DNA from: an uncultured Fidelibacterota bacterium
GTDB taxonomy: Bacteria > Fidelibacterota > Marinisomatia > Marinisomatales > UBA1611
Direction: 5' to 3'
DNA: 58,472 nt
NCBI GenBank assembly: GCA_913040915.1
Contig: CAJWHW010000010.1
Location: 1 to 58,472 of the forward strand
A program made the translations under genes and the position numbers. The notes below the pieces were generated by a model. The model ran no database searches and was not told the DNA's origin. It was given only the letters and a program-made list of their open reading frames with translations. Below are positions 1 through 19,200 of the stretch, one piece after another; position 1 is the stretch's first letter, and every line of letters begins with the position of its first letter.

Positions 1-2170
<2,170 letters not shown>

Positions 2171-2247: not shown

Positions 2248-3192
2248 CTAATACTGCTTTGTTTTTATACAAAATTCTCTGTAGATCCTTGCTAATTCTT
2301 GTAACATTTCAACGGAAGATTGAAAGTTATATGACATAATGTGTTCTACATTCAACCCTATAGGCACCTTTAAATCATTCGTAGAAATAAAATTAAGAGT
2401 ATCATTTAGCACTTCAATGGCTACATCTAGAGATCTTTCAGTCATTGATCCAGGTCTACCCTGTAGATATCGCTCTGTTTCAGCAGGGATTTCCACGCCT
2501 AACCATTTTAAAAAATCAATATTTTTTTGCGATGAAACTGGGGCAAAACTTAGTAAAATCCTTCTCGGAAATGTTTTTGATTCATCACATTGTTTTTGGT
2601 AAAAATCTATCATTTTTATGACCTTGGCAGAGTCATATAAGACCTGGGTAGTAAAAAACTCTGATCCATGATTTGTTTTTTTGATCAAATTCATCGATTC
2701 TTTAACCCGACTTGGAATAGCAATACCTCCACAGAATATATCACCACCATTTGAATTAAAATCACTTGAAATAGCACTTAGCATTTCCTTTACAGACGGT
2801 CCAGGGTATTTAATCGAACTAGATTCACCGCCAACAATAATCATATTTTCTATCTCAAATTCCTTATTAGTTTGTTCCATCCATTTTAATTGAATGTCAA
2901 GTGGCTCATGAACAACGACCCGATTTACAATCGCTTCAATTCCAACAATATCTTGCATCATTCGGCCAAATTCTCTTGGCTCGCCGCGTTTTTGACTGGA
3001 GACAGGTCTATCTCCTCTACTATTTTCATCATGAACTTCCGGAATATTGATGGCATCTATATGAGTTTGGGATAGCAATGAACTGATAATCTCTGCATAG
3101 GAATTCAACGTGCCGTCCTTTTCCCTTGGTGGTAGGATTTCATATGCAACTACAGGTCTTTTCGGTTTTTTTACTTTATCTCTAATTCTCAT
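2248..3192 (-). CDS. Divergent 5,10-methylenetetrahydrofolate reductase (mycobacterial-type-like MTHFR)
   Basis: YEILPP, GIAIPSR..E, K..HGSEFFTTQVLYD and ILLSF motifs of the MTHFR fold; located between metH and metK. Confidence 0.8.
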   Translation of the reverse strand: MRIRDKVKKPKRPVVAYEILPPREKDGTLNSYAEIISSLLSQTHIDAINIPEVHDENSRGDRPVSSQKRGEPREFGRMMQDIVGIEAIVNRVVVHEPLDIQLKWMEQTNKEFEIENMIIVGGESSSIKYPGPSVKEMLSAISSDFNSNGGDIFCGGIAIPSRVKESMNLIKKTNHGSEFFTTQVLYDSAKVIKMIDFYQKQCDESKTFPRRILLSFAPVSSQKNIDFLKWLGVEIPAETERYLQGRPGSMTERSLDVAIEVLNDTLNFISTNDLKVPIGLNVEHIMSYNFQSSVEMLQELARIYREFCIKTKQY

Positions 3193-3198
3193 ATATTA

Positions 3199-6100
3199 TT
3201 ATTTATTTTTTAATACGCTGAAATAACGTGATTCAGGATGGGAAAATATCCATCCGCAAACAGATGCGGTAGGCCACATAGCTCTCGTTTCTGTGAGAGT
3301 AACACCGATCATATTCTCAACATCCAACAGTTTCCAAATTTTATCTTTTTCTGTATGGTCAGGACAAGCCGGGTATCCCGGTGCCGGTCGAATGCCAATG
3401 TATTTCTCTTTTATTAATTCATCATGGGAAAACTTTTCATCCTTAGCAAAACCCCAGTATTCTTTTCGAATTTTCTCATGTAACCACTCAGCACTTGCTT
3501 CTGCAAAGCGATCTGCTATTAATTTCACCATAATAGAACTATAATCATCGTGATTAGACTCATACTTTTCTACAAGTTTTTTCAATCCATGTCCAGCAGT
3601 TACAGTGAATACTCCTAGGTGATCGCTCCCTTCAGAAGAAATGAAATCTGCTAAACAATAATTAGGCTGTTTACCTTTATTAATAAGCTGACGTGGATAA
3701 TTAAATGTTATATTATCTTCATAGAGAACGATATTTTCATTTTCTGATTTTGCCGGAAAAATGCCGAAGATCATTTTAACTGTTAAAGATTCATAATCTA
3801 TTAATTCCGAGAGTAATCTTTGAGCATCATCAAATAATTTTTGAGCTTCTGAACCTTTTTTAGCATCATTTAGAATTCCAGGATATATACCTTTTAATTC
3901 CCAAGCATGAAAAAAAGGTGTCCAATCAATATAACTAGCTAGTTCCTTAAGAGAAATATTTTTTACAGTTTTTCTACCAATTGAGTTTGGCTGATAAGGT
4001 TTATATTTAAGATTTGGTTTTCTTGAACGTGCTTCTTTTATATTTATTTTTTTAATTGTTTGTTGATTCTGATAGAATTTCTCACGTATTGAATTATAAT
4101 CATCTGTGGTTTTTTGGATAAGTAATTCTTTTTGTTCGGGTTTTAATAATTGGCCCACCACTCCCACGCATCTACTTGCATCTAGAACATGAAAAACAGA
4201 TTTTGGATATTTTTCTTCTATTTTTATAGCTGTATGTTTTTTACTAGTTGTAGCACCTCCTATTAGAAGAGGAGTTGTAAAATTTTTCCTTCTCATTTCA
4301 GATGCAACATGTACCATTTCATCCAAACTTGGAGTAATGAGACCTGATAATCCGATTAAATCCGCATTTAATTCTATGGCGGTTGATAAAATCTTATCTG
4401 CTGGGACCATAACCCCTAAGTCCACAATTTTATAGCCATTACAGCCTAGAACTACTCCAACAATATTTTTACCAATATCGTGTACATCTCCTTTAACAGT
4501 AGCTAAAACAATCGTACCATTTGTTAAATCTTCCAAACCTTTTGATTCTTTTTCCTTTTCGATAAATGGCACCAAATACGCCACAGCTTTTTTCATTACC
4601 CGAGCAGATTTCACCACTTGGGGTAAAAACATTTTTCCGGCTCCAAAAAGATCTCCTACCCTATTCATACCATCCATAAGGGGCCCTTCTATAACCTGAA
4701 TTGGTTTTTCCAACTGATCACGTGCTTCTTCAGTATCAGCTTCAATATATTTATCGATCCCTTCCACCAATGAATGAGACAACCTTTCTTTAACAGGTAA
4801 GGATCGCCAAGCAATATCTTGAATTTTCTGCTTTTTCTTTGCTCGGTAATTTTCAGCCAATTCGACTAACCTATCCGTAGAATCGATACGGCGATCAAAT
4901 AAAACATCTTCAATAGATTCTCTTAAGTCAGAATCGATATCATCATAAACAACCAACTGACCTGCATTGACTATCCCCATATCCATACCATTCTGGATTG
5001 CATGATATAAGAAACAGGAATGCATAGCTTCTCGCACAGGATTATTTCCCCGAAAAGAAAAAGACAGGTTGCTGACACCACCGCTGATGTGGACACCGGG
5101 CATTTTATCTCTAATTGTTTTTGCAGCATCTATAAATGCTTTCCCGTACTGATTATGTTCTTTAATGCCAGTTGCTACTGCAAAAATATTTGGATCAAAT
5201 ATGATATCTTCTGGTTTTAACCCAACCTTTTCAGTTAAAATATTATAAGCTCGTTCACAAATATCCACCTTACGCTTGTAGGTATCGGCCTGACCTTTTT
5301 CATCAAAGGCCATAACAATTACAGAAGCACCATATTTTTTTATTATTTTTGCATGGTGGATAAATTCGTCTTCACCTTCTTTTAATGAGATAGAGTTAAC
5401 TACTCCTTTTCCCTGTATATTTTTTAAACCTGTTTCAATCACAGTCCATTTTGAAGAATCAATCATAATGGGAACTTTGGATATTTCCGGTTCAGATGCA
5501 ATTAAACGTAAAAAATCTTCCATTGCTTGTTCTGAATCAATTAGGCCATCATCCATGTTCACATCAATTATTTGTGCCCCATTTTCTACTTGCTGCCTAG
5601 CAACGGAAAGTGCTTCTTCATATTGATTTTCTTTAATGAGTAGGCGGAATCGTTCCGATCCTGTCACATTGGTACGTTCTCCCACATTGATAAAATTAGA
5701 TTCAGGTCGAATTACTAAAGGCTCCAAGCCGCTTAATTTTGTATAGGGTTCAGTTTTCGGTATTTTTCTTGGTTTTATATCTTGGACAGAGTTTGAAAAG
5801 GCTGCAATATGATCTGGTGTTGTTCCGCAGCATCCACCAATAATATTCACTAAACCTGATTCTGCAAATTCTTGGAGAAAATTTGACATTTGATCTGGGG
5901 TCTCGTCATATTCTCCGAATTCATTGGGTAGTCCAGCGTTTGGATAAACCATTATATTAGTATCCGCAATCTTAGAAAGGGCATCTATATAGGGACGTAT
6001 TTGTTCTGCTCCGAGAGCACAATTCAAGCCTACTGCAAGAAGGTCAGCATGCCGAATTGAATTCCAAAATGCATCAACCGTTTGCCCTGATAAGAGACGT

Positions 6101-6747
6101 CCACTGGCATCAGTAATTGTTCCTGAAACAATGACTGGTATCTCTTCCCCTATTTCTTCGTATAAATTTTGAATTGCAAAAAGTGCTGCTTTACAATTCA
6201 GAGTATCAAATACAGTTTCGATCAATAATAAATGAACACCGCCATCAATTAAACCCTTAGATTGTTCAAAATAAGAATCAACTAACTCATTAAAAGTCAC
6301 ATTTCTAAAACCTGGATTTGAGACATCCGGACTCATAGAAGCTGTTTTATTTGTAGGCCCTAAAGCACCACAGACAAAACGTGGTTTTTCAGGATCCATT
6401 GCAGTGAATTCATCCGCAACTGATCGGGCAATTTTGGCTGCTGCTTTATTCATATTATAGACTAAATCTTCCATTTGATAATCAGCTTGGGAAATACGCG
6501 TTGAATTAAATGTATTGGTTTCAATCAAATCTGCACCTGCAGTTAAATAAGATTCATGTATCTCTTTTACAATATCTGGTTGCGTCAAAGATAGTAAATC
6601 ATTATTCCCCTTTAAATCACACGGATGATTTTGGAATATTTCACCACGGAAATCCTTTTCACTTAGCTCATAAGATTGCACCATAGTTCCCATGGCACCA
6701 TCAAGAGTTAGGATTTTATTTTTTAATATATTTTTTATTTTTTGCAT
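3199..6747 (-). CDS. metH: B12-dependent methionine synthase
   Basis: [37 protein letters not shown] (cobalamin binding) and [12 protein letters not shown]; full-length 1182 aa. Confidence 0.99.
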
Positions 6748-6772
6748 AAAAAAAACCGGTGCTAAGTCCGGC
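6748..6772 (-). terminator. Intrinsic terminator in the metH leader (riboswitch expression platform)
   Basis: Minus strand GCCGG-ACUUAGCA-CCGGU running into a U8 tract, directly followed by the metH AUG. Confidence 0.75.
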
Positions 6773-6786
6773 TTCTAAATTTAGAA

Positions 6787-6835
6787 CCTTTTTAGCGTTT
6801 ATTTTATGTCGCGGCAATACGGTGCAAATCACGAC
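6787..6835 (-). promoter_or_regulatory. SAM-II riboswitch aptamer
   Basis: Minus strand GUCGUGAUUUGCACCGUAUUGCCGCGACAUAAAAUAAACGCUAAAAAGG. P1 is GUCGUG/CGCGAC; the conserved UGAUUU, CCGUAUUGC, AUAAA and GCUAAAAAGG pseudoknot elements are present; it lies upstream of metH. Confidence 0.92.
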
Positions 6836-6903
6836 TTGATGAAATTATGAAAACTGTCTTAAGTATTCAAATATTTTTAAATAATACTTATAATTTGTTT
6901 TTT

Positions 6904-8532
6904 CTATGTATGATTTTTTAATGAAGGGCCTGCATTTAGGATCACATCATCACCTAAATCATATTTTTTATAATTTGATTGAAATTTCTTTACCAATTCT
7001 TTTGCTGATCTATGGTAATCATCTATATTGGCCCATGTACGAATTGGATTTAATAATTTTGAATTGACATCTCCTAATGTAATTGGAATTTGGATTCCAA
7101 AATATTTATCTATCTCAAAGTCTGATTTTTCAATTTCACCATTAAGAATATTATTGATAATCTCCCTTGTGTCAGGTAGACTGAAACGTTTAGCTCCGGA
7201 TTTCGCATTTGCACCTACCCAACCTGTATTTACTAAATAAACATCCACGGTAAATTGTTCCATTTTTTCTTTTAATAATCTGGCATATCTGAGCGGGTGC
7301 AGTGTCAAAAATGGTCCGCCAAAGCAAGGTGAAAAAGTCGCTGTAGGTTCTGTAATTCCACGTTCTGTCCCTGCCACTTTTGCAGTGTACCCACTAATAA
7401 AGTGATACATGGCCTGATCTGCTGATAACTTTGCCACAGGCGGTAAAACACCATAGGCATCACAGGTTAGAAAAATTATTTTCTGGGGATGTCCCGCCAT
7501 ACTTGGCTGACCTTTTCCATAAACAGAATTATCAATATGGTTTAATGGATAGGAAACTCTCGTATTATCAGTTTTTGAATTATCGTTGAAATCAATCTGC
7601 TTTGTTTCAGGATCATAAACGACATTTTCCAGTAGCGCACCTTCCCTAATTGCATTATAAATATCCGGCTCATCTTCAGGATTTAGATTGATTACTTTTG
7701 CATAACAACCACCTTCGAAATTAAATATACCATCATCTGACCAGCCATGCTCATCATCGCCAATCAAAGGACGACTAGGCTCGGTTGATAAGGTAGTCTT
7801 ACCTGTACCGGATAATCCGAAAAAAATCGCAGGGTTATCCCCATTTTCAAATACATTTGCGGAGCAATGCATTGACAAGACACCTTTTTGGGGAAGCATA
7901 TAGTGTAAAACAGAAAAAATTCCTTTTTTCATTTCACCACCGTATTCTGTCCCTCCGATAATTGCTAATCTTCGACCTAAATGAAATAAAATGAAAGTTT
8001 CAGAATTCATGCCTAATGCTTCATAATCATCATTTGTTACATCCGATGCATTTATAATAGTAAACCCAGGATCAAAGCCGTTTAATTCACCGTTTTTCGG
8101 ACGAATAAACATATTATGGACAAAATGTGCCTGCCAGGCTTTCTTGGCAATAAAACGTACACTAAGAGAATAATTTGGATCCGCACCTGCGTATCCATCG
8201 AAAACATAGCTTTTACTATCATCGGAAGTATTGTAAAAATTAATCACCTTATCATATAATTTATTAAAAATATCTTCAGATATTTTTCTATTGATAGGGC
8301 CCCACCATATTTTGTCTACTGAACTAGGCTCATCTACAATATATTTATCCTGCGGGGATCGACCAGTATAAATTCCTGTATCAACCATCGCTGCACCCCT
8401 TAAACCAACTACACCTTCTCCGTTATTAACAATATCGCTAACCATAGTTTTCACAGATAAATTTCTGTAAACATTCTTTAGATTATTAAAACCTAGTTTA
8501 TCTAGACCAAGATCATTTCCTGATATTTTCAT
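6904..8532 (-). CDS. pckA: Phosphoenolpyruvate carboxykinase (ATP)
   Basis: [55 protein letters not shown]. Confidence 0.98.
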
Positions 8533-16231: not shown

Positions 16232-19200
16232 TCACTTTAAAAATAGCATTTTCTTTGTGGATTGATATTTATCAGTTTGAATTGCGAAAAAATACATTCC
16301 GGTTGCAACTTGGCTACCATTATCACTGGTACCATCCCAGACTAGAGTATGATAACCTGGAGTCAACTCCGTATTGGATAGAGTCCGAATCTTTTGCCCC
16401 AAAATATTAAAAATAGTCAGATTAACAACACTAGCTTCCGGCAAATCAAATCTGATTTCAGTGGAAGGGTTAAATGGATTCGGAAAATTCTGGTGTAGCA
16501 CAAATTCATCGGGAATAACCTTGACTTCTGATGAAGTCGTTCTGGACACTGTTTCAATTAATTGTCCATCTACACCAGCGATCTTATTACCGCCTAATGA
16601 TATATGCGTAACATCTTGTTTGTCTCCAATGAATTCTACCGGAATTGATAAGTACGAATTATTTTTTCCATTAATGCTGCCACCTCGTAGATTTGCAGCT
16701 ATAACTTTTATTTTACCATCTTCTTTTTCAGTGAAAGAAACCATTACATTTTCCTGTAAAACCGATAGTGACGGTGACAATACCTTTACTAAATCTGGAT
16801 CATATTCTAATTCAAATTCAATACCACGAACCGGACTACTATATTCAATATCAAAACCTAATTTAGAATTATTAAAATCAGTTTTTAGATCAATATATGC
16901 CAATTCGGATGGATCAAAACCTAATGTTCTTCCCATTCCGCCAAAAATAATATCTATCATCATTATAATATCAGCAATATTTATTTCTTCATCATTATTG
17001 AGGTCACAATTACGAGTTTGGTCTTCTGACGGTATTTCCTGTTCTAGAATAAAGTCTATGGCTGATAACACATCAGAAATGTCTACATCACTATCAAAAT
17101 CAGCATCACCATAGGTAAAGGGGACTGCACAGATTGTATTGGATGCTCTAGATTCCAATTGACCATATCCTCCATCAGATGGATCTCCAGTATCCCAGAA
17201 TGCTCTTACATTATAACAATACTCTAAATAGTTCGGACTAGCATCAACAGTGGCAAAAGTATCTACTGTGGCAACTAAAAATGTTTCATCTCCATTAGAA
17301 TCAATTTCATATACTCTATATTCAAGTAATTCATTATCACGATTATCAAATATGTTAATTGGCGAAATAAAAACAGGATGTGTAGGTTCACTTGAAAAAT
17401 TTATTGGTGTTAGATTACTGGTACTAGCCATTAAGGATGCATTAATATTGGTAGAGTTGTAATCAATAGGGGGAGTATTATCAACTGAAGATAAAGTTCT
17501 TACACCTCCACCATAGGACATTACATGTACTGCCATCATATAATCACCCCCATAGCCTAAATAGTCACCATAGTTCCATTCACCATCATAAAGTGTTATC
17601 ATATTTTCAGCATAATCAACACTTGCATCAACACCAAACCCCTCTAGGTCCGTCCAACCAGTGGAATGCGAAATAAGAACATAGACCGCACCATCTAATC
17701 CTGATAAATCTGGATAGATCGTGGCCCACCCATCTTCCGCAATTGATTCTTCATCGTGCAATAGGTTACCAGGGTAACCATTATTATCATCAAATATTAA
17801 TATCCTTACTGGACCGTGTGTGGCATCTGGCCATGGCCAGAATTCATCACCTTCAGATAATATTTTTATGGATGCGCCTAAAACATCAAAACCACCACCT
17901 ACATCAAAACGCATTCCATGGGCAAATCCATCCTCATAAGTATCAAAAAAGTAGAATGCAGTAGATAGGATCCCATCATCATATTGAATTGTTAATTCTT
18001 CACCATCTCCGGGTGTACGCCACTCAAGATAAACCTGTTCATCAAGCGGTGTCCCTTCAAGGCCTGCAGGCTTTGGCATATCAGGCGAAAGCATAACATC
18101 TAATATAGTGGGTTCAGCTTGTGCCAACACTAATGTATCTATACTGACGGTTGAAAAACCAAAACGTGATAAGGTGACAGTCTGAGATCCAGTGTTTAAA
18201 TTCCAGAGGGTATAGGTACCATTTTGATCTGTTGTATCAGAAAAGTCTCCAGAAGAAACAACTACACTATCCAAGGTTGATCCATTTGGATCTGTAATAA
18301 CTCCGGTAATATCACCATATAAGAAAGTAGGTGAAGCACTAACTGTAATTATTTCACTTTCATCAGTTTCATTTTCATTAACAAAGTATACAGCACTCAC
18401 ACCAAGTTCATAGGTCACATTATTTGTAAGACCATCAACAGAATAATTTCTGAGTTGTATGATACTACTATTATGTTGAGTGCCATCAACATAGGCATTG
18501 TAACCAATTAAATCACCAGCTACAACTGTTGTATCTACTTCAAAAGTAGTAGTTCCTGTTTCACCAGTTTCAATTGTCCAATTTAAATATTCTTCTTCGT
18601 TACTAGCATTTGTTACAATTAAGCTGTTACCATTCCAACCATCACCCCATGAATCATAACCATTGACACTGTAAACGCCATGATCTAGTGATGCAGTCTC
18701 TAAGTATGGAGCTCCGCCTGAAGCAACAATTGTTCCAGATTCATCAAATATTTCCCAAGTCACTTCCGTCTGCCAAGAGCCTCCATCACACTCAATCGTG
18801 ACTGGTACGGACCTTGAGTTACGAGAGTAATCTGGATGTACGATAGATGGAGCTGGCTCTTGATGCGATTCTGTTGTTCCATATACTTCATATTTATTAA
18901 TATTTTGTAATTCTGTTTGGTTGTTTAATTTATTTAAATCTGTGATACCAGGCCGGAATGCATCAGAAGTTCTATTAGATGCTGTGGCACTAACTATCAA
19001 ATTATATTCTCCAAAAGACGTGGTACCATATCCGTCTACAATTAAAAAATAAGTACCTGAAAGTCCTGTTCCACTAATCTCAGATTGGAGACCTGTTTCA
19101 CAACCATCATCATCAAATGCAACTTGAGTTTCACAGTTAGAGCCAAAAAGAATTAAGTAAGTGTCCCAAGTATTACCGCAAAGTGAAAAATTAACATCAA

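Follow-up and report, generated by a model that had tools for sequence, protein, structure and literature searches.

The interval between pckA (8532-6904) and metH (6747-3199), on the minus strand of this contig, raises two questions: does it encode a riboswitch that senses S-adenosylmethionine (SAM), and if so, does that riboswitch act on transcription or on translation? The window, by which we mean the whole stretch of 58,472 nt that was analysed, belongs to an assembly of 1.86 Mb (85% complete, 34.8% G+C) from the order Marinimicrobia/SAR406. The nearest named MetH loci are found in Marinimicrobia/Neomarinimicrobiota MAGs at 71-64% identity, and the leader is alike in five of them. Two of the named loci have leaders identical to the letter with those of genomes assigned to the family and order of the window, which places the host in Marinimicrobia (SAR406). 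The genes on either side of the interval are the following.

8532-6904, minus strand: pckA, the gene upstream of the leader
3199-6747, minus strand: metH, cobalamin-dependent methionine synthase, 1182 aa (NF007024, 1989 bits; TIGR02082, 1734 bits)
2248-3192, minus strand: MTHFR-like gene, 314 aa, 6 nt 3' of metH (PF02219, 29.5 bits, cut-off 24)
995-2170, minus strand: metK, SAM synthetase, 391 aa, TTG start (TIGR01034, 546 bits)
3-986, minus strand: ahcY, S-adenosylhomocysteine hydrolase, 8 nt 3' of metK and running off the window (TIGR00936, 413 bits, partial)

The start codon of metH is secure: alignment to the MetH profile begins at residue 2, and alignment to relatives at residue 1. The MTHFR-like gene also matches, weakly, the MTHFR half of NF006396. 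Inspection of the 77-nt gap 5' of metK revealed no hairpin, and 32 of the 35 ORFs of at least 200 aa in the whole window lie on the minus strand. We infer that metH, the MTHFR-like gene, metK and ahcY are cotranscribed as a four-gene operon. From the pckA stop codon at 6904 to the promoter of the riboswitch (6904-6871, minus strand) there is neither a hairpin nor a U run, so that transcription of pckA may also continue into the riboswitch and end at its putative terminator.

The predicted SAM-II aptamer and its promoter

The leader contains five elements, listed here in the order in which they are transcribed or, for the promoter, precede the transcript.

6865-6870, minus strand: -35 box, TTGAAT (TTGAnn-N16-18-TAnnnT in the upstream regions of relatives)
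6842-6847, minus strand: -10 box, TAATTT, 17 nt after the -35 box (sequence; spacing to P1 in relatives)
6786-6835, minus strand: SAM-II aptamer, H-type pseudoknot (RF00521, 36.7 bits over 6845-6771; pairing in 48 relatives)
6761-6796, minus strand: predicted antiterminator (minimum free energy (MFE) fold of the leader; -10.1 kcal/mol alone; covariation in relatives; 0 of 100 loop shuffles)
6748-6776, minus strand: intrinsic-terminator-like hairpin, AGAAGCCGG, loop ACUUAGCA, CCGGUUUUU and U8 (-10.5 kcal/mol; MFE once the tail is blocked)

The aptamer can be traced base by base on the minus strand. P1 is formed by GUCGUG (6835-6830) and CGCGAC (6813-6808), and its loop reads AUUUG-CA-CC-GUA-UUGC, with ACC-GUA-UUGC at 6823-6814. 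An A-rich linker leads from P1 to the 3' tail GCUAAAAAGGU (6796-6786), which comprises GCUAA (6796-6792), AAA and GG (6788-6787). The tail returns to the P1 loop to build the pseudoknot, with ACC (6823-6821) pairing with GGU (6788-6786) in P2a and UUGC (6817-6814) pairing with GC(U)AA (6796-6792) in P2b. The core, consisting of the U-rich L1, UUGC and GCUAAA, aligns to the Rfam consensus.

The original prediction had called this a near-textbook SAM-II aptamer and had named a search with Rfam SAM_alpha (RF00521) as the check. That search returned a match at 6845-6771 (minus strand) of 36.7 bits against a gathering score of 36, a real match that lies barely above the threshold (E-values of 1.1e-4 in the search of the window and 8.6e-7 in that of the genome). 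The SAM-II identity therefore stands, whereas "near-textbook" overstates a score just above the cut-off. RF00521 is the sole Rfam family above its cut-off in the window, and this is the sole RF00521 match in the assembly. On the leader, SAM-V (18.2 bits, cut-off 41) and SAM-II long-loop (20.5 bits) both fall far under their cut-offs, as do all remaining Rfam families that give a match at E <= 10 within 6600-7000.

Related leaders preserve the same fold. In an alignment of 48 leaders, from which the divergent non-metH copies L130 and L135 were left out, the aptamer structure is 95.5% paired, compared with at most 49.7% when the structure is slid along the sequences. The motifs UUGC, GCUAAA and GAUUUG are invariant or at least 90% conserved. 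P1 is paired in 96.2% of cells, with compensatory changes on both sides at two of its six pairs, and P2a is paired in 88.2% (AU 19, GU 10, GC 6). P2b is 100% paired, a figure that is uninformative because its sequence is invariant. These results support the assignment of the leader RNA as a SAM-II riboswitch that is predicted from its sequence to bind SAM.

The promoter lies immediately upstream of the aptamer. A CATAAT/TAATTTC box had been proposed to place the transcription start just before P1, and it coincides with the -10 element of a conserved promoter that ends 6 nt before P1, giving a predicted start at ∼6836-6834, at the foot of P1. The pattern TTGAnn-N16-18-TAnnnT is present in 24 of 49 upstream regions, whereas 200 shuffles averaged 1.66 and never exceeded 7, and in 19 of these 24 matches the -10 box ends 5-7 nt before the first G of P1. 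A Bacteroidetes-type promoter (TAnnTTTG) was considered as well and was dropped, on a judgement by eye, in favor of the conserved TTGAnn/TAnnnT pair.

Two alternative folds downstream of the aptamer

The aptamer is followed by the segment UUCUA-AAUU-UAGAA, a GC hairpin with a U tract and, directly after it, the AUG; the earlier description of this arrangement is accurate to the base in the minus-strand sequence. In the terminator stem, GCCGG (6772-6768) pairs with CCGGU (6759-6755) across the loop at 6767-6760. The U8 tract (6755-6748) adjoins the metH AUG (6747-6745), and there is no purine-rich box 5' of the AUG. In the alternative fold, which would serve as the antiterminator, GCUAA of the tail (6796-6792) pairs with UUAGC (6765-6761) and GG (6788-6787) pairs with CC (6771-6770), enclosing an inner hairpin of UUCUA (6786-6782) and UAGAA (6777-6773) with an AAUU loop; G6772 is bulged.

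Folding calculations place the two structures close to one another. The MFE structure of the 91-nt leader (-19.6 kcal/mol, with no pseudoknot term) consists of P1 plus the long hairpin GCUAA/UUAGC, GG/CC, UUCUA/UAGAA, the same alternative hairpin that had been proposed to exclude both the pseudoknot and the terminator. This antiterminator fold is already the MFE structure for a transcript that ends at the terminator loop (-18.0 kcal/mol). The terminator, with nine pairs extending into the U tract, and the antiterminator are nearly iso-energetic (-10.5 and -10.1 kcal/mol), and in the ligand-free ensemble they are populated at ∼0.35 and ∼0.64, respectively. When the tail and its P2 partner are barred from pairing, as a mimic of the SAM-bound state, the terminator becomes the MFE structure. 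Shuffling the 8-nt loop alone raises the probability of the terminator from 0.35 to a mean of 0.98, and it exceeds the native value in all 100 shuffles. It is therefore the sequence of the loop that makes the hairpin switchable.

Other measures of the window copy are less distinctive. The z-score of the leader is -1.44, and 16 of 200 shuffled sequences fold equally well, which is weak evidence when taken alone. The bare tail/loop duplex has an energy of -4.7 kcal/mol, near the mean for shuffled targets (-4.43), and ranks 26th among 50 leaders. With a tail/loop helix of just 5 bp and with C.A and A.C oppositions at positions that covary elsewhere, the window copy is among the weaker leaders.

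A consensus terminator scanner found no sites in 6400-7200, in our opinion because the stem of the leader hairpin extends into the U run. Over the whole window the scanner's counts are near shuffle expectation (13 vs 11.9, 22 vs 14.0 and 9 vs 8.5), and the pattern scanner is not informative for the leader hairpin. A canonical intrinsic terminator with a 14-pair stem and a T-rich tail is present at 16213-16180 (minus strand), just 3' of a 1090-aa ORF ending at 16232, and thus the genome does use intrinsic terminator signals.

Taken as a whole, sequence comparison makes it highly probable that this SAM-II riboswitch is a SAM-OFF transcriptional switch that works through a terminator placed before metH. 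Transcription would start at ∼6835, right at P1. With SAM bound, the tail would be locked in the P2 pseudoknot with the P1 loop, leaving the downstream sequence free to fold into the AGAAGCCGG/CCGGUUUUU hairpin with its U tract, and RNA polymerase would terminate at ∼6750-6747, before metH. When SAM is scarce, the free tail would pair with the 5' arm and loop of the terminator (CC...UUAGC) as they emerge; no terminator would form, and polymerase would read through into metH and probably into the MTHFR-like gene, metK and ahcY. Both SAM binding and actual termination in this leader are inferred. In four marine metatranscriptome runs, at most 0.07 of the sampled words were present. Exact metatranscriptome contigs over 5800-7800 are short ones inside pckA (7071-7242) and metH (6155-6318), with none over the leader and no readable ends or strands; a 157-nt contig from a relative touches 6716-6758 and then diverges.

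Conservation in relatives and alternative readings

Among 61 genomes covering the levels between genus and order, 54 have a match to RF00521 at E <= 0.01 and 32 have one above the cut-off; each of the 35 genomes of this sample that are at least 90% complete has a match. An even sample of the phylum yielded a match in 35 of 151 genomes, mostly from the same order. Within the order, one family with ∼1-Mb genomes (f12; 95-99% complete) has a match in only one of seven genomes, and nearly all other families have one.

We examined 60 RF00521 matches. Leaving out L027 and L136 (N) and L126, L130b and L132 (no five-T run) gave 55 leaders, and leaving out a further two, L012 (U run misplaced by the parser, terminator visible) and L139 (a 22-bit match with no aptamer features), gave 53. 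A hairpin followed by a run of at least five U is thus found in 53 of the 55 parsed leaders, with hairpin energies from -5.1 to -17.3 kcal/mol, and 50 of the 53 are distinct. The intrinsic-terminator-like hairpin that had been noticed after the aptamer in the window is therefore a recurrent feature. The ORF downstream matches the N-terminus of MetH in 48 of 52 cases, and one of the four exceptions is MetK-like. Because the loop-only shuffle gave 0 of 100 and the same layout is conserved in relatives, the aptamer-terminator layout is solid beyond chance.

Two individual loci show other arrangements of these elements. In L111 (G037:C36:12428-12505, minus strand) the same aptamer and terminator precede an ORF with a MetK-like N-terminus, the motif being recognized by eye. 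L130 (G058:C5:245898-246079) has two SAM-II-type aptamers in tandem, both under the cut-offs. The first, which scores 27.9 bits on RF00521 and has its own terminator, is found again at a distance of 9 kb (L131). The second reaches 34.7 bits on SAM-II long-loop, and after it come a hairpin lacking a U run, an AAGGAG box and an ORF of 130 aa.

The position of the hairpin relative to the start codon bears on the second of our questions. Of 49 leaders, 23 have the U run directly against the start codon (0 nt) and 16 have it 3 nt away; in 42 the distance does not exceed 5 nt, and the linker between aptamer and hairpin varies from 0 to 17 nt. In the window copy the extended terminator stem leaves only three unpaired U before the AUG. 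The absence of a Shine-Dalgarno (SD) sequence before metH had been remarked on, and it is indeed absent, but this is not a special feature of the gene: an SD-like match, even a 4-mer, precedes only 11 of the 35 ORFs of at least 200 aa in the window. A test for the dual-attenuation platform had no SD to locate, and found the U run 0-5 nt from the start codon in the 42 leaders already mentioned.

These observations could be read to mean that the hairpin is mainly translational, with the SAM-bound fold lying against the AUG and barring the 30S subunit, and with termination minor or incidental. The close and repeated spacing, alongside a linker that varies freely, fits this reading, as do the few free U before the AUG and the SD-poor genome, in which ribosomes probably require an open leader to initiate; the recognized platform classes, moreover, include one of "dual transcription and translation attenuation" (PMC2258182). 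A hairpin acting on translation only, however, needs no U tract, yet 5-9 U after a GC-rich stem, the signature of an intrinsic terminator, are kept in 53 of the 55 parsed leaders, and at least one canonical terminator shaped like it lies at the end of a different gene of the window (16213-16180). We regard a mainly translational hairpin as improbable. Because the stem sits against the AUG, a translational contribution besides termination is plausible.

A more specific possibility, which we advance tentatively and consider somewhat doubtful, is that the SD-poor Marinimicrobia have joined the terminator to the start codon, and that one element of ∼29 nt would do three jobs: terminate transcription when SAM is bound, bury the ribosome site in transcripts that escape, and open a landing pad without SAM. 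In the absence of SAM, the antiterminator would free CCGG-U8 as an open, U-rich (S1-type) landing pad that replaces the SD box. If this is true, the 0- or 3-nt spacing (39 of 49 leaders, 16 families) would be selected for function; it would not be mere genome compaction, because the linker between aptamer and hairpin drifts.

Returning to the SAM-OFF transcriptional switch, its central element is the competition between tail and terminator, and we compared this pairing among relatives. Each tail was paired with a target consisting of the terminator loop and the 4 nt that flank it on either side, in the 5' arm and in the 3' arm. Cognate duplexes average -7.47 kcal/mol and permuted ones -6.14 ± 0.23, with none of 10,000 permutations as low; this figure and the shuffle figures below overstate the support, because the relatives are kin and not independent. 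In the 48 aligned leaders the antiterminator helix is 77.7% paired, and the whole structure is 87.0% paired, compared with at most 52.3% when slid. The antiterminator alignment has 27 cells changed on both sides, compared with 7.8 ± 3.8 in shuffles (0 of 500). The pair 44-86, just outside the invariant GCUAA/UUAGC core, occurs as CG 13, UA 13, UG 5 and AU 4, with mismatches in 12 of 47, and the next pair as GC 28, GU 5 and AU 3, with 10 mismatches; in total, the antiterminator covaries at three positions flanking the invariant core. The original prediction had staked itself on conservation of the GCUAA/UUAGC complementarity in relatives, and this pairing is both kept and accompanied by covariation.

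Folding of the individual leaders gave a mixed picture. The native probability of the terminator is below the loop-shuffle mean in 32 of 50 leaders, and in 22 of the 50 no more than five of 100 shuffles are as low. The native loop fails to lower this probability in 18 of the 50; four leaders among the 50 carry no information, since the tracked pair does not form in them. RNAalifold applied to the 48 leaders recovered P1 only, and neither the terminator nor the antiterminator. We relied on per-sequence folds and on counts for named structures because the terminator columns are out of register between two hairpin architectures.

These data also address whether the terminator might be constitutive or leaky and uncoupled from the aptamer, as has been proposed for Sinorhizobium meliloti metA, with the GCUAA/UUAGC match incidental. 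For metA a riboswitch-driven antiterminator could not be predicted (PMC9373788), and an uncoupled terminator would be consistent with the 5-bp complementarity of the window copy, with its near-chance duplex energy and with the failure of RNAalifold to recover the helix. It is difficult to reconcile with covariation on either side of the invariant core, with cognate pairings that are better than permuted ones in 10,000 of 10,000 permutations and with the loop-only shuffle in the window copy, and we consider it very unlikely.

SAH riboswitches (RF01057) activate the metH, MTHFR, metK and ahcY-type gene set in beta- and gamma-proteobacteria and control the same recycling genes (ahcY, metH, metF) as the leader described here; they differ from it in fold and ligand, and their logic is ON. 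An aptamer that senses SAH or another SAM-related compound would suit an operon containing metH, an MTHFR-like gene, metK and ahcY, but it is hardly credible here, given that the sequence matches SAM-II, that RF01057 has no match in the genome at E <= 0.01 (a search in which the control also matched nowhere), that the UUGC/GCUAAA/GAUUUG core is invariant or nearly so in relatives, and that a terminator which forms when the ligand binds switches the genes OFF, a logic that fits SAM as ligand but not SAH.

Relation to known riboswitches

The proposed SAM-OFF switch resembles SAM-II elements that are already in print. The original prediction held that SAM-II usually sequesters the SD, and this background, with the rarity that it implies for a terminator platform, proved mistaken. 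Terminators after SAM-II were described in 2005 and read as an OFF switch by Corbino et al., who also listed occurrences beyond the alpha-proteobacteria, including the Bacteroides group (PMC1273637). Barrick and Breaker (2007) found SAM-II to be the only aptamer most often tied to regulatory terminators, which are its commonest platform (PMC2258182). The metA motif of Corbino et al. (RF00521, PMC1273637) shares with our leader P1 and the H-type pseudoknot, the conserved core, a promoter a few nucleotides upstream of P1, OFF logic, a putative intrinsic terminator that separates P2 from the ORF, and methionine/SAM genes downstream. It differs in that the host here is Marinimicrobia (SAR406) and not Proteobacteria or Bacteroides, the score is barely above the cut-off and the U tract is fused to the AUG; metH is unmentioned in the text of that paper, figures aside.

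Other known systems differ in gene, spacing or mode of control. For S. meliloti metZ, Scheuer et al. (2022) predicted a terminator-type SAM-II riboswitch, in which a Rho-independent terminator would form in the expression platform once SAM binds, and the short riboswitch RNA, RZ, is more abundant under high SAM (PMC9373788); metZ, however, is an alphaproteobacterial and different gene, with a normal spacer and SD after the terminator. The Sargasso Sea metX SAM-II, which serves as the structural model system (cited in PMC9373788), has the same aptamer fold and also uses the 3' pseudoknot strand as the switching element, but there the strand carries the SD and control is translational, whereas in our leader, which lacks an SD, the strand's rival is a terminator. 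Barrick and Breaker apply the term "dual transcription and translation attenuation" to terminators that abut the ORF, so near to it that the ribosome-binding region lies in or against the 3' side, as in our leader; what defines this class is that the SD lies within the 3' arm, whereas here there is no SD and only a U tract between stem and AUG (PMC2258182). SAM-V is a marine, AT-rich relative with the same pseudoknot fold, whose tandem pair is said to act both transcriptionally and translationally; the leader RNA here, at 18.2 bits against the SAM-V cut-off of 41, stands alone. Our search of titles and abstracts found no paper pairing Marinimicrobia or SAR406 with a riboswitch, supplements and figures aside. 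What is new here is modest: the phylum, the metH-MTHFR-metK-ahcY operon and the fusion of the U tract to the start codon.

A SAM-I riboswitch (RF00162, 73.8 bits, cut-off 44.4) is present in this genome as well, at G000:C2:56785-56899 (minus strand), equivalent to L146:4286-4400 (minus strand), on a contig of 107 kb with a G+C content of 34.4%, similar to that of the window. Of the 61 genomes of the order, 11 have a SAM-I match; in every one of these it is accompanied by an RF00521 match at E <= 0.01, which is above the cut-off in six. The text of the 2007 survey reported no single species in which SAM-I occurs together with SAM-II (PMC2258182), and a literature search found no later statement on their co-occurrence in one species. 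In relatives, SAM-I precedes metY and SAM-II precedes metH, an arrangement that suggests a division of labour. In the genome studied here, the ORF at L146:4146-3967 (minus strand), ∼139 nt after the SAM-I aptamer, has only 59 codons, and its match is to the N-terminus of metY-like ORFs of 432-437 aa found after SAM-I in L140, L141, L142 and L144; from its sequence, it looks like a truncated metY-like remnant. A fused aspartokinase/homoserine dehydrogenase (794 aa) and asd lie downstream of it.

Because this riboswitch class, its OFF logic and its terminator platform have all been published, the metH leader adds little to riboswitch biology as such. Its ∼50 natural variants of one terminator/antiterminator design do provide a ready mutational series for SAM-II-driven termination, which is thinly tested experimentally, and the direct junction of U tract and AUG, in a genome poor in SD sequences, bears on how such mRNAs recruit ribosomes. 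For the organism, the leader would mark the main SAM-responsive control point in an abundant, uncultured deep-ocean lineage, in which all of the methyl cycle (metH, the MTHFR-like gene, metK and ahcY) seems to be under a single sensor.
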